A stretch of DNA of 64,000 nucleotides from an uncultured Chitinophagales bacterium (GTDB lineage: Bacteria > Bacteroidota > Bacteroidia > Chitinophagales > JADIYW01): the NCBI GenBank assembly GCA_964507125.1, contig CAZDOT010000001.1:47559-111558 (forward strand). Direction: 5' to 3'. A program made the position numbers and the translations under genes. Under the pieces are notes generated by a model. That model did not search any database. It had not been told where the DNA came from and worked only from the letters and a program-made list of their open reading frames with translations. Positions 45,397 through 54,058 of the stretch are shown in pieces; the first letter of the stretch is position 1, and the number at the start of each line of letters is the position of its first letter.

Positions 45397-47574
45397 ATGG
45401 TAACGGAGCAATTAGATGTAAAGCAACAATTAGCAACTGAGTATGCATTAAAAACATTTGTAAATGTATTTGTTACCGGGAAAGCCGGAACGGGAAAGAC
45501 CACTTTTCTTAGAAATGTACAGAAAAATACGCTTAAAAAAACGGCTGTGGCTGCACCAACCGGCGTGGCTGCCATTAATGCCGGTGGAATGACATTGCAT
45601 TCGCTTTTCCAATTACCACTAATGCCCTTTTTACCAACCAAGCAACGTGTACCGGATAATTTTGCGAATCAACAATCTTTATTTGAGAAATTCAGATTTA
45701 GCAAAAGTAAAATTCAACTTATCCGTGAATTGGAACTTCTTATTATAGATGAAGTCAGTATGTTGCGTTGCGACACACTCGACTGCATTGACACAACACT
45801 TCGAACATTACGCAAAAATCAACAAGAAGCTTTTGGTGGCCTGCAAGTTTTGTTTATCGGAGATTTATTTCAATTACCACCGATTGTAAAAGAGGAAGAA
45901 TGGTATTATCTGAAAGAATATTACGATTCACCTTTCTTTTTTCATGCACAAGTGCTTAAAGAAACCAGCTTTGTAAATATAGAGTTTGATAAAATCTATC
46001 GTCAAAATGAAGAAAAATTCATTCGCTTACTCAACAAAGTACGCAATAATGAAATGAATGAAGATGATTTTGAACGATTAAACGAACGATATGAACCCGA
46101 AGCGTTGAGTAGCTTAGAAGAATACATTACTTTAACGACACACAATTATAAAGCCGATAAAATCAACCAAGCTCAGTTACAAAAATTAGAAGATGAAATA
46201 ACGGAATACTCCGCAATTGTTTCCGGAGATTTTTCGGAAAGTTCTTTTCCTACGGAACAAACATTGCAACTCAAAAGAGGTGCGCAAGTTATGTTTATTA
46301 AAAACGATAGCAATCCGGAGAAGAAATATTTTAACGGCAAATTAGCAAGCATCAAAAATTTTACGAATGATGGCATTGTTGTACAATTTTTAGATGATGG
46401 TGAAGAATATACATTAGGAACAGAAACTTGGGAAAACATACGATATGCTTACAATCCGGCAACCGATAAAATTGAAGAAGAAAAATTAGGCAGTTTTACG
46501 CAATTTCCGATTCGATTAGCATGGGCAATCACCATACATAAAAGTCAAGGCTTAACATTTGACAAAGCCGTTATTGATGCCGGACAAGCATTTGCACCCG
46601 GACAAGTGTATGTAGCTTTAAGTAGATGCACCACTTTACAAGGTTTATATTTATTGACACAAATCCATCCAAATGCCATTAAAAGTGATGAACGCATTAT
46701 TGAATACACTGAAAATAATTTAGATGGCGAAACCGAGATGCTTCGAAAATTGCCTTTCTATAAAATTGAATTTGCCAAAGCACAATTAATTAAAGCATTT
46801 GATTGGCAAAAAACGGTAGATCAATTTGTTGATTTTATTCATTTTACGGAAGAAAAAAAATTACATCAAAAAGAAGATGTATTAGATAGATTTAAACGAA
46901 TAGAAAAAGAACTTAGAGACATAGAGCAAACCGGAAAAAAATTCTCGGTACAATTGCAAGACATCTTAAACAAAATTGACCAACCGGAAAATCAAAATAT
47001 ATTGCAGGAGCGTGTATTAAAATCGATACGTTATTTTGGTGAAAAATTAGCACAACAAATCATCCAACCTTTGCATACCTATATTATAGAAAATCAAAAT
47101 AAAAAAGGAATGAAAGGATTTTTGAAACAAGCTAATGAAATGGAACAAACATTATTGACGAAGTTGCATCAAATAGAGCAATTGCAATTTGGCGATGCCG
47201 CTTTTTACAACGGTAAATCTTTTTTTACACAAACACATGAAGACATTAGCAATAAGCTAACTCAAAAAGCGGTGAAAGGCGATTCACACAGAGAAAGTTT
47301 ACAACTTTATAAATCCGGAAAAAATATTCAAGAAATTGCTACAGAACGCAACTTAGCGATTTCTACGGTAGAATCTCATTTAGCTGAATTCATTACCAGT
47401 GGCGAAATTCCCATTACTGATTTTTTAGACACTACTGCATTAACTGATATCCAAACTGCAATTCAACAATTAAATACAACACAATTATCACCCTTAAAAT
47501 CTCATTTTGGAGAACGGTTTTCATTTGGACAAATACGCATGGCAATTGCTGCTTCAAATTCTAATAAAAGTTAA
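45397..47574 (+). CDS. Pif1/RecD-family (SF1B) DNA helicase with a C-terminal helix-turn-helix domain
   Basis: Walker A VTGKAGTGKTT and Walker B LLIIDEVSM. Other SF1B motifs are GDLFQLPPI, ITIHKSQGLT and VALSRC. The C-terminal roughly 100 aa form an HTH-like region (NIQEIATERNLAISTVESHL). Confidence 0.8.
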   Translation: MVTEQLDVKQQLATEYALKTFVNVFVTGKAGTGKTTFLRNVQKNTLKKTAVAAPTGVAAINAGGMTLHSLFQLPLMPFLPTKQRVPDNFANQQSLFEKFRFSKSKIQLIRELELLIIDEVSMLRCDTLDCIDTTLRTLRKNQQEAFGGLQVLFIGDLFQLPPIVKEEEWYYLKEYYDSPFFFHAQVLKETSFVNIEFDKIYRQNEEKFIRLLNKVRNNEMNEDDFERLNERYEPEALSSLEEYITLTTHNYKADKINQAQLQKLEDEITEYSAIVSGDFSESSFPTEQTLQLKRGAQVMFIKNDSNPEKKYFNGKLASIKNFTNDGIVVQFLDDGEEYTLGTETWENIRYAYNPATDKIEEEKLGSFTQFPIRLAWAITIHKSQGLTFDKAVIDAGQAFAPGQVYVALSRCTTLQGLYLLTQIHPNAIKSDERIIEYTENNLDGETEMLRKLPFYKIEFAKAQLIKAFDWQKTVDQFVDFIHFTEEKKLHQKEDVLDRFKRIEKELRDIEQTGKKFSVQLQDILNKIDQPENQNILQERVLKSIRYFGEKLAQQIIQPLHTYIIENQNKKGMKGFLKQANEMEQTLLTKLHQIEQLQFGDAAFYNGKSFFTQTHEDISNKLTQKAVKGDSHRESLQLYKSGKNIQEIATERNLAISTVESHLAEFITSGEIPITDFLDTTALTDIQTAIQQLNTTQLSPLKSHFGERFSFGQIRMAIAASNSNKS

Positions 47575-47625: not shown

Positions 47626-47937
47626 GTGAAATATTTGGTTTTCATTTTTAGTATTTACTTGTTAGCACTTTCCGTAGTGCCTTGTAGTGATATTAAAAAT
47701 GAGTGTTCCAATCAAACAGCAGCAGAAAAACAACACCATCACAATCAAGATGCAGATGACAACTGCACACCATTTTGTACGTGTACTTGCTGTATAAGTG
47801 GTATTACAATTGCAAACCCACAACATTTAGTTGCTGATAATTTTTACACAACAACTACAATAGAAAAAATACCAACTATCAATACACAGTTTATTTCTTC
47901 CTTTGAAGGAAATATTTGGCAACCGCCTAAAATTTAA
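47626..47937 (+). CDS. Small Cys/His-rich membrane-anchored protein (DUF6660-like) upstream of czcA
   Basis: GTG start. N-terminal helix ending in ...LSVVPCSD, a His run (QHHHNQD), the cysteine cluster CTPFCTCTCC, and a C-terminal IWQPPKI. I recall this pattern from the small ORFs that precede Bacteroidota czcA genes. The family name is from memory and not verified. Confidence 0.55.
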   Translation: MKYLVFIFSIYLLALSVVPCSDIKNECSNQTAAEKQHHHNQDADDNCTPFCTCTCCISGITIANPQHLVADNFYTTTTIEKIPTINTQFISSFEGNIWQPPKI

Positions 47938-48047: not shown

Positions 48048-51000
48048 GTGTTAAATAGCATTATTAAATTTAGCATTCACAATAAACTCATTATTGGAAT
48101 TGGCACTTTATTACTCGCCATTTGGGGCATTTGGAGTGCCACCAAATTACCTATAGACGCACTTCCGGACATCACTAATAACCAAGTGCAAATTATTACC
48201 GTTTGCCCAACTTTAGCCGGACAAGAAGTGGAACAACTCATCACCTTTCCGATAGAGCAAAGCATTGCCAACTTACCGGATATAGAAGAAACACGAAGTA
48301 TATCTCGTTTCGGATTATCTGTAATTACGGTTGTTTTCAAAGAAAAAGTGGACATTTATTTTGCTCGTCAGCTTATCAATGAACGATTAAATGAAGCCAA
48401 AGAAAACATACCAAAAGGCATAGGAACACCTGAGTTAGCACCTATCAGCACCGGATTAGGCGAAGTATATCAATATATCTTGCATCCCAAAAAAGAAAGT
48501 AAAAACCACTATACTGCCATGGATTTGCGCACCATGCAAGATTGGATTGTTGCTCGTCAGTTATACGGAATTCCGGGCATAGCAGAAGTTAATAGTTTTG
48601 GCGGTCAACTAAAACAATATGAAGTTGCCGTAAATCCGGATAGACTCCGAGCAATGGGCGTAACTATTCCGGATATTTTCATTGCTTTAGGAAAAAATAA
48701 TCAAAACACCGGTGGTGCTTATATTGATGAAAAACCTTATTCGCATTTTATTCGTGGTATTGGTTTGGTATCTTCTTTAGATGAAATCAAAAATATTGTA
48801 GTAAAAAGTAATTCCACCCATGTGCCCATTTTTATTAGAGATGTTGCGGATGTACGTTTTGGAAGTGCGGTGCGTTATGGTGCCATGACCTACAATGGTG
48901 AGGTAGATGCTGTTGGTGGTGTGGTGATGATGTTAAAAGGAGAAAACAGTAATGAAGTTGTAAAAAGAATCAAAGAAAAAATTCCAACCATACAAAAATC
49001 ATTACCGGAAGATGTGGTGATAGAACCTTTCTTAGATAGAACAGAATTAGTTGGAAGAGCAATCAACACCGTAGAAAAAAATCTAATCGAAGGTGCATTA
49101 ATTGTCATATTTGTATTAGTAATATTTTTGGGTAATATAAGAGCCGGTTTAATTGTTGCATCTGCAATTCCATTGTCTTTACTATTTGCATTAGGTTTAA
49201 TGAATGTGTTTCATGTAAGTGCTAATTTAATGAGCTTAGGTGCAATTGATTTTGGATTAATTGTAGATGGAGCTGTAATTATTGTAGAAGCTACACTGCA
49301 TCATTTAGGATTGCGAAAAACAACGCAAGCTTTAACGCAAAAAGAAATGGATGAAGAAGTCTTTCAATCCTCTTCCAAAATCAGAAATAGTGCAGCATTT
49401 GGTGAAATAATTATCTTAATTGTTTACATTCCGATATTAACCTTAATAGGTATTGAAGGAAAAATGTTTGCACCAATGGCGAAAACAGTAGGCTTTGCCA
49501 TTTTGGGTGCTCTCATCTTATCATTAACGTATATTCCAATGATGTGTTCTTTGTTTTTAAAACAACAACAACATCTTTCTTTTTCAGATAAAATGATGCA
49601 GTTTTTTCATCAGCTTTATCAACCATTATTAAAAAAAGCAATTCAATTTAAAAACATTTTAATCGTATTTTCTATTGCACTTTTTGCATTGTCTTTATTT
49701 ATATTTAATAGAATGGGCGGCGAATTTATTCCAACATTAAATGAAGGAGATTTTGCCTTTCATTGTATTTTACCACAAGGTGCATCACTTAATCAAAGTA
49801 TCGAAACATCGATGCAAGCATCGCGTATTTTAAAAGAAATGGATGAAGTGAAAATGGTAGTAGGAAAAACCGGAAGTGCTGAAGTACCTACAGACCCAAT
49901 GCCGCCAGAAGCAACCGACATGATGATTATTTTAAAGCCAAAATCGGAATGGAAAAATGACAAAACATACGATGAATTGGGTGATGAAATGATGGAAAAA
50001 TTGGAAGTAATTCCAGGAATATTTTTTGAAAAAAACCAACCAATACAAATGCGCTTCAATGAGCTTATGACCGGAATAAGACAAGATGTAGCCGTGAAAA
50101 TTTTTGGTGAAAATATGGATACCTTAAGTAGATATGCAGAAAGTGTAAATAACGTACTCCAAACCATTGAAAGCATTACGGCTCCGCAAATAGAACGCGT
50201 AAGTGGTTTGCCGCAAATCAATATTGAATATGACCGAAATAGAATGGCGAATTATGGCTTAAATGTGGAAGATGTAAACAGCATTATAAGCACAGCATTT
50301 GCCGGAAAAACAGCAGGTGTTGTTTATGAAAACGAACGTCAATTTGATTTGGTAGTTCGTTTAGATAGTACCCATAAAAATTCCATCAGCGATGTACAAA
50401 ATTTATTGATACCAACTAATTTTGGTTCGCAAATTCCATTATCACAAGTTGCCAATATTTCGTATAAATTAGGTGCGGCACAAATTAGTAGAGAGGCCGG
50501 AAAAAGACGAATCGTTATCGGGTTTAATGTGAAAAATAGAGATGTAAAAAGTATCGTAGCAGAACTTCAAGAAAAATTAGAACAACAAATAAAATTACCA
50601 TCCGGATATTATTTTGCTTATGGTGGTACGTTTGAAAATTTACAAAAAGCAAGCAATCGTTTAATGATTGTTGTGCCAATATCTTTACTGCTTATTTTCA
50701 TTTTACTTTACCTTACTTTTCGTTCCATTACACAAGCAACACTTATTTTTACAGCTATTCCAATGAGTGCCATTGGCGGTGTATTTGCTTTATTAATACG
50801 AGATATGCCATTTAGTATTTCAGCTGGTGTTGGTTTTATTGCACTGTTTGGTGTTGCCGTATTAAATGGAATTGTATTAATCGGCACATTTAACCAACTC
50901 GAAAAAGAGGGCATTACTGATGTTATACAGAGAGTATACGAAGGAACAAAAATACGTTTACGTCCGGTACTCATGACAGCAACCGTTGCATCATTAGGTT

Positions 51001-52406
51001 TTCTTCCGATGGCGTTAAGTAACAGTGCAGGAGCCGAAGTGCAAAAACCCTTAGCTACCGTAGTTATTGGTGGTTTGATAAGTGCCACACTGCTTACGCT
51101 TTTTGTATTACCTTTATTATATATCGTATTTCAATCTATCTTCCAAACAAAAAACAAGTCGGTGAAAACAGCAATTTTACTTGTAGGTATATTGATATTG
51201 AATATTCCATCAAAAGTAACAGCACAAAATAATCAGCCATTAACGGTAGAACAAGCCATTGAATTGGCAACAAAAAATAATCCGGAAATTAAGTCTCAAA
51301 ATTTGGAAATACAATCAAAACAAAACACACAAAAATCTGTACGAGAATTTCCTAAACTATCCATAAATACACAGTTTGGGCAATACAGCAGCATCCAATT
51401 CGACCATGCAGTAAGTATAGAACAAACTATTCCATTTCCGACTGTATTTAATGCAAAAAAACAATTAATAAATGCTGAATTGCAAGGACAAAAATGGCAG
51501 CAAGAAATCACAAAAAATGAGCTTGTTTACACGGTAAGAAAGTTATACAACGAACTAACATTTTTAGAAAGCAATAAAAAACAACTCTTTTATTTAGATA
51601 GTTTGTATGTCGCATTTATACAAGCAGCAACTATACGTTACAAAACCGGTGAAGGAAAGAAAATTGAAATTAGTAGTGCCGAAACCAAACACGGAGAAAT
51701 GCAATTATTATGGCAACAAAACAACACCAACTTTCATATTGTCTATAATAAATTGAAAAATATATTAAACATAGAAGATGATTTTTCGATACGTATAGAT
51801 AGCACTTATTTACCTATAGATGTGGTTTCAATTAATGATTCCATACTTTTAAAGAATCATCCAAACATACAATTATTATTGCAAGAAGCAGCTATTGCCA
51901 CACAAATTCAAAAGGTTGAAAAAGCACAAGCCTTACCTGACTTTACTTTAGGTTACACCAATCAATCATTAATTGGATACCAAACGATAAACGAACAAGA
52001 ACAATATTTTAATGGCAAAAAAAGATTTCATGTCGGCAGTGTCGGCATACAAATTCCGGTATCTTATGGTGCTACAAAAGCAAAAATTAAAGCATTGGAT
52101 TATCAAAAACAAGCAATAGAAACAATTGCAGATTACAAGCTCCAAGAATTACGCATGCAACAACAAAATACCATCGAGCAATATCAACAAAACAAACAAG
52201 AGTATCAATATTATAAAGATAAAGCATTACCTAATGCGCAAGAAATAATTCAAAATGCACAAGTTGGCTATCGCACCGGAGATATTGATTATGTTGAGTA
52301 TTTAATGGCATTGCAAACAGCAGGAAATACAAAATTGAATTATTTAAAAAGCATACAACAACTCAACGAAACCATCCTTTATTTAAAATATCTTATCCAC
52401 CAATAA
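48048..52406 (+). CDS. czcA: Heavy-metal efflux RND pump CzcA/CusA fused in frame to a TolC-like outer-membrane factor (CzcC-like)
   Basis: GTG start. Residues 1 to about 1036 are a full 12-TM CzcA (MLNSIIKFSIHNK..., PDITNNQVQI, FGLIVDGAVIIVE, and the last TM LISATLLTLFVLPLLYIVF). Residues 1039-1452 begin with a signal-peptide-like VKTAILLVGILILNIPSKVTA|Q. They continue with outer-membrane-efflux-protein-type repeats (LTVEQAIELATKNNPEIK..., ...YRTGDIDYVEYL...). Confidence 0.85.
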   Translation: MLNSIIKFSIHNKLIIGIGTLLLAIWGIWSATKLPIDALPDITNNQVQIITVCPTLAGQEVEQLITFPIEQSIANLPDIEETRSISRFGLSVITVVFKEKVDIYFARQLINERLNEAKENIPKGIGTPELAPISTGLGEVYQYILHPKKESKNHYTAMDLRTMQDWIVARQLYGIPGIAEVNSFGGQLKQYEVAVNPDRLRAMGVTIPDIFIALGKNNQNTGGAYIDEKPYSHFIRGIGLVSSLDEIKNIVVKSNSTHVPIFIRDVADVRFGSAVRYGAMTYNGEVDAVGGVVMMLKGENSNEVVKRIKEKIPTIQKSLPEDVVIEPFLDRTELVGRAINTVEKNLIEGALIVIFVLVIFLGNIRAGLIVASAIPLSLLFALGLMNVFHVSANLMSLGAIDFGLIVDGAVIIVEATLHHLGLRKTTQALTQKEMDEEVFQSSSKIRNSAAFGEIIILIVYIPILTLIGIEGKMFAPMAKTVGFAILGALILSLTYIPMMCSLFLKQQQHLSFSDKMMQFFHQLYQPLLKKAIQFKNILIVFSIALFALSLFIFNRMGGEFIPTLNEGDFAFHCILPQGASLNQSIETSMQASRILKEMDEVKMVVGKTGSAEVPTDPMPPEATDMMIILKPKSEWKNDKTYDELGDEMMEKLEVIPGIFFEKNQPIQMRFNELMTGIRQDVAVKIFGENMDTLSRYAESVNNVLQTIESITAPQIERVSGLPQINIEYDRNRMANYGLNVEDVNSIISTAFAGKTAGVVYENERQFDLVVRLDSTHKNSISDVQNLLIPTNFGSQIPLSQVANISYKLGAAQISREAGKRRIVIGFNVKNRDVKSIVAELQEKLEQQIKLPSGYYFAYGGTFENLQKASNRLMIVVPISLLLIFILLYLTFRSITQATLIFTAIPMSAIGGVFALLIRDMPFSISAGVGFIALFGVAVLNGIVLIGTFNQLEKEGITDVIQRVYEGTKIRLRPVLMTATVASLGFLPMALSNSAGAEVQKPLATVVIGGLISATLLTLFVLPLLYIVFQSIFQTKNKSVKTAILLVGILILNIPSKVTAQNNQPLTVEQAIELATKNNPEIKSQNLEIQSKQNTQKSVREFPKLSINTQFGQYSSIQFDHAVSIEQTIPFPTVFNAKKQLINAELQGQKWQQEITKNELVYTVRKLYNELTFLESNKKQLFYLDSLYVAFIQAATIRYKTGEGKKIEISSAETKHGEMQLLWQQNNTNFHIVYNKLKNILNIEDDFSIRIDSTYLPIDVVSINDSILLKNHPNIQLLLQEAAIATQIQKVEKAQALPDFTLGYTNQSLIGYQTINEQEQYFNGKKRFHVGSVGIQIPVSYGATKAKIKALDYQKQAIETIADYKLQELRMQQQNTIEQYQQNKQEYQYYKDKALPNAQEIIQNAQVGYRTGDIDYVEYLMALQTAGNTKLNYLKSIQQLNETILYLKYLIHQ

Positions 52407-52416
52407 AATAAATCTT

Positions 52417-53670
52417 ATGTTTATCTCTAAAAATAATTCCAAACTCTTCATATCATGTGTGCTTGCAAGTATTGTATTTACTGCATGTTCCAACCATACA
52501 CACAACGAAGAGGATGCACATGCACACGATGCAACTGAAACAGTAACAAAAACTGAAAAAACAATTACGGCTTTAACGGATGCACAAATAAAAGCCGTTG
52601 ACATACAAATTGGAAGTATAGAAAACAAACAATTAACAGCAACGCTTAAATTGAATGGCAACTTGCGAGTGCCTAATAACAATAAAGCAAATGCCACTTC
52701 GTTATATGGTGGTGTTATCAAAACACTGAACGTACAAGTAGGTAGTTTCGTAAAACAAGGACAAGTAATTGCCACCATTGCCAATCCTCAATTTATACAA
52801 TTGCAAGAAGAATATTTATTGGTAAGTAGTAAAATAATTTATGCAGAACAAGAACTCAGTCGTCAAAAAGAATTAAACAAAGAAAATGCCGGTGCTTTTA
52901 AAAATTATCAAAGTGCCGATGTCGAATTGAAAACATTACGCACGCGCAAAGCATCATTACAACAACAAATACAATTAATGGGCATCAACCCAAATAATAT
53001 CAGTAATGAAAATATGAAATCGGCATTAACGGTTACCAGTCCTATAAATGGAACTATTAGCAATCTATTTTCTAAAATTGGTTCGTATGTAGATGTGTCT
53101 TCACCGGTGGCAGAAATCGTGGATAACAACCAACTTCATTTAGATTTACAAATTTTTGAAAAAGATTTGCCTTTGATAAAAATTGGTCAAACTATTCACT
53201 TTACCTTAACGAATAATCCGATTCATGAGTACGATGCACAAGTGTATAGCATTGGAACAGCCTTCGAATCAGAAAGCAAAACAATTGCAGTACATTGTAA
53301 AGTAAACGGCAACAAATCAGGATTAATAGACGGCATGAATATCACTGCAATTGTGAGTTTAAACAATGCTGTGATGCCGGCCGTTCCTAACGATGCAATC
53401 ATTAATGCAGATGGTCGTGATTATATTTTTATGGTAACAGATAAAAGACCAAAAGATGAACATGATGAAGATGATGAAAAAGCAACAAATGAAACGAACA
53501 AAAATGCAGCAATATATTTTGAAAAAATAGAAGTGGTAAAAGGTATTTCAGAAGTTGGATACACCGCAATTACGCCAATTATAGATTTGCCCAACAATGC
53601 GAAATTAGCAGTAAAAGGTGCATTTTTTATCAATGCAAAAATGACAAAAACAGAAGAACACGTGCATTAA
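52417..53670 (+). CDS. czcB: Efflux RND periplasmic adaptor subunit (CzcB/HlyD family), lipoprotein with His/Asp/Glu-rich segments
   Basis: Lipobox FTACSNH and a His-rich N-terminus (HTHNEEDAHAHD). It also has a biotinyl-lipoyl-like hairpin (VGSFVKQGQVIATI), a coiled-coil hairpin, and beta-barrel motifs. It starts 10 nt after the czcA-OMF stop. Confidence 0.85.
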   Translation: MFISKNNSKLFISCVLASIVFTACSNHTHNEEDAHAHDATETVTKTEKTITALTDAQIKAVDIQIGSIENKQLTATLKLNGNLRVPNNNKANATSLYGGVIKTLNVQVGSFVKQGQVIATIANPQFIQLQEEYLLVSSKIIYAEQELSRQKELNKENAGAFKNYQSADVELKTLRTRKASLQQQIQLMGINPNNISNENMKSALTVTSPINGTISNLFSKIGSYVDVSSPVAEIVDNNQLHLDLQIFEKDLPLIKIGQTIHFTLTNNPIHEYDAQVYSIGTAFESESKTIAVHCKVNGNKSGLIDGMNITAIVSLNNAVMPAVPNDAIINADGRDYIFMVTDKRPKDEHDEDDEKATNETNKNAAIYFEKIEVVKGISEVGYTAITPIIDLPNNAKLAVKGAFFINAKMTKTEEHVH

Positions 53671-53692: not shown

Positions 53693-54058
53693 ATGAAAAA
53701 TATACTATTAAGTTGGATATGCTTAATGATTTATTGTTTACAAGTTCAAACAACATTCGCAAACAATGAAAAAGAAGTACTTACTAAAGCAGTTATTAAA
53801 ACTACTTTCTATTGTGATCATTGTTTAGAATGCGAATCATGTGCCGGACGATTTGAAACGCAACTTAAACATATAAAAGGTTTAAAAAAGTACACCATCT
53901 TCGATAAAAAAAATGCAATTGTAGTTTACTACAACAACAAACAAACTACGATACAAGACATAAGATTGGAAATATCAAAAATGGGATTTGATGCTGACAA
54001 CATTAAAGCCAACAGCAAAGCCTACAATAAATTAGATGCCTGTTGCAAGAAAAAATGA
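53693..54058 (+). CDS. Secreted heavy-metal-associated (HMA)-fold protein with an atypical CxxCxxCxxC site
   Basis: Signal peptide (...VQTTFA), then a beta-alpha-beta-beta-alpha-beta pattern with CDHCLECESC in the position of the canonical MxCxxC loop. The C-terminus is CCKKK. It is the last gene of the czc cluster. Confidence 0.7.
   Translation: MKNILLSWICLMIYCLQVQTTFANNEKEVLTKAVIKTTFYCDHCLECESCAGRFETQLKHIKGLKKYTIFDKKNAIVVYYNNKQTTIQDIRLEISKMGFDADNIKANSKAYNKLDACCKKK

Follow-up and report, generated by a model that had tools for sequence, protein, structure and literature searches.

Tripartite efflux pumps are described as assemblies of three separately made proteins (e.g., PMC8277102). In a 64,000-nucleotide stretch of DNA from an uncultured Chitinophagales bacterium (contig CAZDOT010000001.1; the whole stretch is called the window here), two of these components are encoded by one open reading frame (ORF), czcA::OMF: an inner-membrane pump of the CusA/CzcA type and an outer-membrane factor (OMF), which is the channel. 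The junction between the two, or seam, has the makings of a signal peptide at which the product is probably cut. The ORF and its parts, all on the plus strand (+), are given below with the evidence on which each assignment is based.

48048..52406 (+): CzcA::OMF, complete ORF with start codon GTG and stop codon at 52404-52406; residue 1 aligns to position 1 of TIGR00914
48048..51140 (+): pump module of the CusA/CzcA type, heavy-metal efflux family of RND pumps (HME-RND), residues 1-1031, through transmembrane helix 12 (TM12); TIGR00914 and alignments to ZneA and CusA
51123..51161 (+): predicted cytoplasmic basic linker IVFQSIFQTKNKS, which follows TM12 and takes in the A-rich tract; translation and charge in the family
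51162..51164 (+): in-frame GTG (Val1039), candidate internal start of a pre-OMF beginning MKTAILL...; codon conservation
51168..51206 (+): hydrophobic core TAILLVGILILNI, 13 residues, putative signal-peptide h-region; translation, and the least conserved segment
51207..51227 (+): c-region PSKVTA plus Gln1060, predicted signal peptidase I site A1059|Q1060; comparison of 134 seams
51225..52403 (+): predicted mature OMF, 393 amino acids (aa), TolC/CusC fold; two OEP matches, AlphaFold model, Foldseek

Sequence comparison identifies residues 1-1031 as a complete CusA/CzcA-type RND pump. The Pfam profile ACR_tran matches residues 5-1028 with 961 bits, and the NCBIfam profile TIGR00914 (CusA/CzcA) scores 1200.9 bits against a cutoff of 701.45, with residues 1-1031 occupying model positions 1-1038 of 1051. 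This half also aligns end to end with ZneA (4k0e; E 8e-195; residues 4-1029) and with CusA (3k07; E 4e-192; residues 2-1026), and in these alignments the 12-TM body is complete and ends in TM12. A first-pass annotation, made by a model from the letters of the window and a list of its ORFs, had placed a complete 12-TM CzcA/CusA at residues 1 to about 1036, and both profiles agree with that placement.

Certain residues of the pump might provide hints regarding its substrate. The TM4 motif AIDFGLIVDGAVIIVEA agrees with that of ZneA (AIDFGIIVDGAIVVMEN), CusA having AIAVGAMVDAAIVMIEN at this place. The pattern DFG-x3-DGA-x3-VE is of the ZneA type and not of the CusA type, and the acidic proton-relay residues are kept. 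At the positions that we take to be those of the CusA Met triad, methionines are not conserved in the window alignment. Because the TM4 motif is ZneA-like and the CusA Met cluster is not kept, we infer that the substrate is probably a divalent cation of the Zn/Co/Cd type.

The remainder of the ORF had been assigned to a complete OMF, and profiles and fold bear this out. When both halves are searched, ACR_tran is returned in front and OEP (PF02321, Pfam) behind, the latter in two stretches that score 97.7 bits within the fusion and 103 bits with the tail alone (cutoff 22). An AlphaFold (AF2) model of residues 1016-1452, computed as a monomer from a 20-sequence alignment, has a mean pLDDT (predicted local distance difference test) of 84.4. 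Its protomer is built of two repeats, each with two beta-strands, together with very long helices (strands 88-113 and 283-320; helices up to ~70 residues). Foldseek comparison of the tail model with the PDB retrieves TOprJ1, TolC, SilC, CusC, and OprM over ~400 columns, with E ~1e-15 and template-modeling scores of 0.64-0.71. A sequence search of the OMF half against the PDB gave no match to any solved OMF, and its relatives there are seen by fold only. As modeled, residues 1060-1452 are a complete outer-membrane factor of the TolC/CusC fold, for which a trimeric outer-membrane channel is the predicted assembly.

Between these two modules, the seam reads ...LPLLYIVFQSIFQTKNKS-V(GTG 51162-51164)KTAILLVGILILNIPSKVTA|QNNQPLTVEQA (longer stretch, ...LPLLYIVFQSIFQTKNKSVKTAILLVGILILNIPSKVTAQNNQPLTVEQA...), and the tract CAAACAAAAAACAAG lies 5' of the seam GTG. 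All parts of a signal peptide can be recognized: a basic n-region (...TKNKSVK), the h-region TAILLVGILILNI, and the polar c-region PSKVTA with a helix breaker. At the predicted site, V occupies position -3, A position -1, and Q position +1. The segment is internal, beginning at residue 1039 behind 12 TM helices, and would be N-terminal only if the GTG serves as a start. A Gln at +1 is the mark of the Q-rule, by which this residue is found in ~71% (average) of the signal peptidase I substrates of Bacteroidetes and is cyclized to pyroglutamate (PMC5837995). For a stand-alone outer-membrane efflux protein of Tannerella forsythia, Tanf_07615, a pyroglutamate N-terminus has been established by mass spectrometry after ...LPFCAMA/Q-EVLTLDQ (PMC5837995 supplement). 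This site corresponds to ...SKVTA|Q-NNQPLTVEQ of the window.

Occurrence of the fusion and conservation of the seam

A species-level DNA survey, in which one genome per species (GTDB) was scanned with an alignment of OMF halves, yielded at least 521 loci, of which the best 80 were examined. No stop codon separates the CzcA C-terminus from the OMF in 79 of these 80. At least 1400 codons are open in 65 loci, whereas nine are cut by a contig end, five have a czcA frame that is broken further upstream, and one is split (Pedobacter sp. ASV17). By name, the 80 are nearly all Bacteroidota and include Chitinophagales, Saprospiraceae, Sphingobacteriales, Cytophagales, and Weeksellaceae (e.g., Chryseobacterium). 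The survey was made at the DNA level because the representatives in a 50%-cluster library are mostly contig-end fragments, which give no clean ratio of fused to split lengths.

More remote relatives have the same architecture. When 1.8 billion cluster representatives were searched exhaustively with phmmer, 305 clusters were recovered at E <= 1e-30. All ten of the long distant matches that were given a Pfam scan proved to be ACR_tran+OEP fusions (OMF 29-43% identical), and the same seam plan is found in 28 of 29 long distant matches (26-43% identical). Most of the distant fusions have no Met in the seam. On the evidence of these sequence surveys, the fusion is the norm in a large Bacteroidota clade and is not a peculiarity of the window. 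The first-pass annotation had suspected that over-long CzcA annotations exist in Bacteroidota, and fusions of 1,440-1,460 residues are indeed present in public databases, where they are named only "CusA/CzcA".

These findings bear on the possibility that the fusion is an artefact, produced when a sequencing or assembly error erased the stop codon or frameshift that separated two ordinary genes. Split czcA/OMF gene pairs with gaps of 8-31 nt do occur in some Pedobacter, and a hidden stop codon or frameshift had been considered for ~51150-51165 of the window. However, two further assemblies (Logan contigs from SRR11567528 and SRR11567529, found via the window's adaptor protein and assembled independently from two other sequencing runs) carry DNA across 51000-51360 that is identical to that of the window. 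One of these contigs has 1 mismatch in 4.7 kb, the other diverges further only at its very end, and the gene is called at its full 1452 aa in one of the two assemblies. Furthermore, complete chromosomes are among the relatives with an in-frame junction. An error can be put aside with near certainty, and the single 1452-codon ORF that had been proposed across the seam is upheld.

Comparison of 134 distinct fused seams reveals which features are maintained. All of them have Q at +1; at -1, A accounts for 129 seams, G for three, and S for two. Most have A, L, T, V, I, or S at -3. In 131 seams the net charge of the linker is +2 or more. The hydrophobic core is the least conserved segment, with a mean pairwise identity of 23% versus 85% for the TM12 end. 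Because identity is so low, the core appears to be constrained in hydrophobicity only, as is typical of a signal peptide that is cleaved off, and not of a helix with specific packing contacts. The first-pass annotation had read a signal peptide with a basic n-region, an h-region, and a VTA|Q site from the window by itself, and the same plan recurs across the whole set. By all these features, the seam is recognized as a Sec/signal peptidase I signal peptide of the Bacteroidetes Q-rule type, with cleavage predicted at A|Q.

Some natural relatives do encode pump and channel separately. Split operons were recovered from four Pedobacter loci (L001, L003, L004, and L079) and from Pedobacter endophyticus (L002), and in the split Pedobacter loci the czcA stop codon lies 8-31 nt ahead of an ATG-initiated OMF gene. 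The A-C-B gene order is common to fused and split relatives. The split operons look like two secondary fissions, since their OMFs share 75-77% identity with those of fused genes; for comparison, the nearest relative of the window itself is only 56% identical. If the split relatives arose in this manner, then the OMF must be able to work as a free protein. The P. endophyticus locus (CP064939) has a gene with a bAvd/23S_rRNA_IVP domain, together with repeat-rich DNA, inserted exactly at the czcA-OMF junction of an otherwise fused-type gene (positions 5541-6240 of L002), and its OMF ORF carries an odd extension of ~60-80 residues ahead of the hydrophobic core.

Several other peculiarities were encountered among the surveyed loci. 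Identical seam peptides and near-identical operons are shared by L055, L074, L077, L078, L080, and L081 (Chryseobacterium, Moheibacter, Empedobacter, Nubsella, and Chitinophagaceae), and a second identical-seam set comprises L007, L008, L010, L011, and L039 (Cyclobacteriaceae, Portibacter, Chitinophaga, and Lewinellaceae). Identical seams across genera and orders suggest that the fused operon was recently passed on by horizontal transfer. In four loci (L007, L018, L041, and L058) the czcA frame is broken 157-625 codons upstream of an intact seam, and L025 contains Ns; the four broken frames could possibly be pseudogenes or assembly errors. From broken frames of this kind, gene callers produce 'hypothetical' ACR_tran+OEP fragments of 500-700 aa (e.g., P0004). 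Finally, a contig labeled 'uncultured Bifidobacterium sp.' (L009, CAZFKA010000177.1) has a Bacteroidota-type fused gene with an A|Q seam, probably as the result of a binning error.

Proposed maturation and competing explanations

In the structures of CusA and ZneA, the C-terminus of TM12 is cytoplasmic. From the architecture, its conservation, the site signature, and the selection on the OMF, which are all observed, we infer the following course of membrane insertion and cleavage. The Lys-rich loop after TM12 would keep the chain on the cytoplasmic side, the 13-residue core would insert N-in/C-out, and Sec would thread the OMF part into the periplasm. The sequence V-T-A|Q would thereby come to lie on the periplasmic side of the membrane, within reach of signal peptidase I, which would cut A1059|Q1060 and free the 393-residue OMF, probably with a pyroglutamate N-terminus (predicted peptide pyroQ-NNQPLTVEQAIELATK). 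The freed OMF would trimerize and enter the outer membrane, and CzcA would retain the spent signal peptide as a 13th helix. Pump and channel would be fixed at 1:1, with the adaptor translated separately, and the seam GTG probably yields some additional, ordinary pre-OMF (MKTAILL...) beside the polyprotein route.

A polyprotein had been one of the two routes suggested for this gene, and it now has comparative support from the conserved A|Q signature and from seams that lack a start codon but retain an OMF under selection. We consider it reasonably probable that the product is a polyprotein cut at A1059|Q1060, encoded in a tripartite heavy-metal RND efflux operon (DUF6660, czcA::OMF, adaptor). 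We also lean, if only slightly, toward the broader view that a large clade makes an obligatory inner/outer-membrane polyprotein matured by signal peptidase I, with a retained 13th helix and, in many lineages, a tunable internal start.

Certain observations weigh against this reading and must be accounted for. Cleavage at a signal peptide that lies inside the chain, behind 12 TM helices, is not known to have been demonstrated for any RND protein. In 19 of the 134 distinct fused seams, position -3 is Phe, a residue not usually seen there in substrates of E. coli-type signal peptidase I, and the AF2 model assigns low pLDDT to the seam helix. The strong retention of ATG or GTG at the seam in many lineages, described below, indicates that the polyprotein route is not the whole story there. 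Proteomic data were not found for any fused member; the supplement to the Q-rule study contains the stand-alone OMF and no fused CzcA (PMC5837995).

The internal start deserves particular attention. The first-pass annotation had noted that the V of VKTA is an in-frame GTG behind an A-rich tract, which is confirmed in the DNA, and had offered it as the alternative to a polyprotein. Among 56 full-length seam types, the codon aligned with this GTG is ATG in 24 and GTG in 9, including the window. The nine GTG-type sequences (69-97% identical; OMF-half dS ~1.5, measured on eight relatives) share 59 all-Val columns, of which seven keep a single codon, and the only all-GTG column is that of the seam. 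Because the GTG is kept at the codon level, an internal start is probable in the seam type of the window.

The sequence context of the GTG is less easily interpreted. Initiation in Bacteroidetes makes no use of Shine-Dalgarno sequences and favors A at -3, -6, -12, and -13 (PMC6847099). Start-type seams have A at -3 in 28 of 38 cases and at -12 in 32 of 38, and the window GTG has A at -6, -12, and -13; czcA itself, and apparently the DUF6660 gene, also start with GTG. A-richness upstream of the seam start is, however, not separable from the Lys codons that the linker contains. The window GTG also has an unfavorable U at -3, the sole such case among the 38 start-type seams, and its use here is uncertain. 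Compared with shuffled controls, the local mRNA at this codon shows no greater openness (z = 0.17), in a weak test that likewise fails to distinguish the authentic czcA and adaptor starts. On balance of the sequence evidence, internal initiation at the GTG likely adds a second, supplementary route in the window. As the sole alternative to a polyprotein, it does not hold: czcA has no stop codon of its own, and therefore every CzcA is made as a fusion, which the GTG can only supplement.

A stronger version of this idea would make internal initiation the productive route, with the OMF of the read-through fusion being degraded or remaining a nonfunctional by-product. The codon-level conservation and the A-rich, Shine-Dalgarno-independent context just described would suit it, as would the GTG start of czcA in the same operon. 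Yet each CzcA would then drag along a useless 45-kDa exported domain, and the U at -3 and the undistinguished mRNA openness are no better suited to a principal start site. Moreover, ATG, GTG, and TTG are all absent between TM12 and the core in 11 of the 56 full-length seam types, and in seven further types such a codon is found solely within the core or with no n-region. The start-less seams include that of the closest relative of the window (L005) and those of most Chryseobacterium, and the A|Q remains invariant even in them. In ten start-less Chryseobacterium-type lineages, the ratio of nonsynonymous to synonymous substitution rates (dN/dS) of the OMF halves has a median of 0.058 at dS ~1.2, compared with 0.074 for ATG-type and 0.103 for GTG-type seams, so that start-less OMFs are at least as constrained. 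A second OMF gene is present neither in this operon nor at any surveyed locus. Start-less relatives keep a selected, intact OMF, and therefore cleavage alone must suffice in those lineages. An internal promoter consensus was likewise not found, as the Bacteroidota-type promoter TTTG-N17-23-TAnnTTTG has no match inside the fused gene and a window-wide count that equals chance expectation. Thus, we regard internal initiation as the productive route as unlikely.

Two other explanations merit far less confidence. The fusion might stay uncleaved as a 160-kDa single chain, with the seam as a permanent 13th TM anchor, given that cleavage is so far deduced from sequence and that SecDF, another RND-superfamily fusion, works uncleaved (PMC8277102). 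However, the OMF part has the full beta-barrel/alpha-barrel channel fold and must leave the inner membrane for the outer membrane. In the model, only ~6 residues lie between the predicted cut site and the first OMF helix, and the gap to bridge in solved pump assemblies is on the order of 100 angstroms. Invariance at -1/+1 beside a hypervariable core is what one expects of a signal peptide that is cut, not of a helix engaged in packing, and natural split versions exist within the clade. All of this makes an uncleaved product very improbable. Even less credence can be given to recoding, by which a frameshift on the A-rich tract (acA AAA AAC) would end CzcA near the seam and the OMF would be made by re-initiation. 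The window does have an in-frame X_XXY_YYZ heptamer at 51148-51155, a +1-frame TGA that overlaps the GTG (GTGA), and a -1-frame TAA just past the cut site. Nevertheless, an in-frame heptamer of any kind occurs in just 33 of the 66 distinct seam DNAs, in varying sequence and position (A_AAA_AAC in 2), the off-frame stops are scattered as expected of AT-rich DNA, and no stimulatory structure is evident. The heptamer and the GTGA overlap are probably by-products of Lys codons and of the M/V-K start of the signal peptide.

How the amounts of partners from two membranes are matched, and how these partners are joined, is a standing question for which a conserved pump-channel fusion offers a ready-made system. 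Such a fusion fixes stoichiometry at synthesis, predicts a defined cleavage, and may leave the pump with a permanent extra helix, and the natural variants (internal start, start-less, and split) can serve as controls. If the polyprotein reading is correct, then channel synthesis is locked 1:1, and to the same site, to pump synthesis. To our knowledge, this would be the first natural case of one chain giving proteins for different membranes of the Gram-negative envelope. There is also a practical consequence for name-based surveys of efflux and resistance genes in Bacteroidota, which will miss the channel when the fusion is named only "CusA/CzcA".

Comparison with known systems and the surrounding operon

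The same three components (HME-RND pump, OMF, and CzcB/CusB-type adaptor) make up the CzcCBA, ZneCBA, and CusCBA systems of Cupriavidus metallidurans and E. coli. The window differs from these in that pump and OMF are one ORF with an internal signal peptide, in the order A::C-B instead of C-B-A, and in that its operon adds a constant DUF6660 partner. CusC is a lipoprotein, whereas the window OMF is a predicted non-lipoprotein substrate of signal peptidase I with Q at +1. Lipoprotein processing by signal peptidase II was considered for the seam and was rejected, as the seam has no Cys and +1 is invariably Q. The split operons of Pedobacter likewise comprise DUF6660, czcA, OMF, and adaptor and have an ...A|Q mature N-terminus, but unlike the window they have a czcA stop codon; they thus illustrate the form that both mature products ought to take. 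Tanf_07615 has its own gene and an N-terminal signal peptide, whereas the signal peptide of the window is internal.

Two precedents for fused membrane proteins are instructive. The nearest in mechanism known to us is the cytochrome b/c1 precursor FbcH of Bradyrhizobium japonicum, reportedly described by Thony-Meyer et al. in 1991, which is said to be a polytopic inner-membrane protein fused via an internal signal peptide to an exported partner and cleaved to two products. Both products reportedly stay at the inner membrane in one complex, whereas the window OMF must cross the periplasm to another membrane, and the families are unrelated. SecDF, for example that of Thermus thermophilus, is a natural single-chain fusion of RND-superfamily-associated subunits (PMC8277102). 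Unlike the proposed polyprotein, it is uncleaved, and both of its halves are inner-membrane modules of the same fold.

A description of a natural RND-OMF fusion was not found in full-text literature searches (most subscription journals and the TCDB/InterPro notes were outside their reach) or in a review of tripartite pumps (PMC8277102). As far as this literature search shows, the architecture is widespread and undescribed, and the window is an ordinary member. The first-pass annotation had known of no experimental work on the maturation of such proteins, and the same search turned up none.

The genes that accompany the fusion on the same strand are as follows.

47626..47937 (+): DUF6660 small protein, first gene of the operon; Pfam PF20365, 38.3 bits; apparent GTG start
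52417..53670 (+): periplasmic adaptor (membrane fusion protein), predicted lipoprotein; TIGR01730, 126.9 bits (cutoff 94.9), and HlyD_D23
53693..54058 (+): predicted secreted HMA-domain protein with a CDHC motif; Pfam HMA, 25.4 bits

The adaptor gene begins 10 nt downstream of the fusion ORF, and the usual czcC-B-A order is thus replaced by A::C, B, as had been observed in the first-pass annotation. In 79 of 83 loci, the OMF is immediately followed by an adaptor homologue. The adaptor lipobox (...IVFTAC|S) is followed by a His-rich segment, NHTHNEEDAHAHD, which is possibly a metal-binding arm. The N-terminus of the DUF6660 protein is hydrophobic (...LALSVVPC|S), and the protein also contains a stretch rich in His (QHHHNQD). 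Of 75 related loci, 74 have a homologue upstream of czcA, which makes the protein a conserved fourth operon member, perhaps with a metal-binding function. The HMA protein, encoded directly after the adaptor, appears to be an accessory periplasmic metal-binding protein and not a core part of the operon because its homologue is found downstream in only 8 of 83 loci.

An Rfam scan of the window gave no match. Between the nuo and efflux operons lies a gene for a PIF1-like SF1B helicase with a C-terminal HTH_40 domain (45397-47574, +), near which no other mobile-element genes were seen. NuoD has a 100% identical counterpart in NCBI, and its named relatives at 86-94% identity come mostly from Chitinophagales MAGs. 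The flanks are otherwise chromosomal housekeeping genes (the nuo operon, RNase R, and trmD), in DNA of 34% GC.

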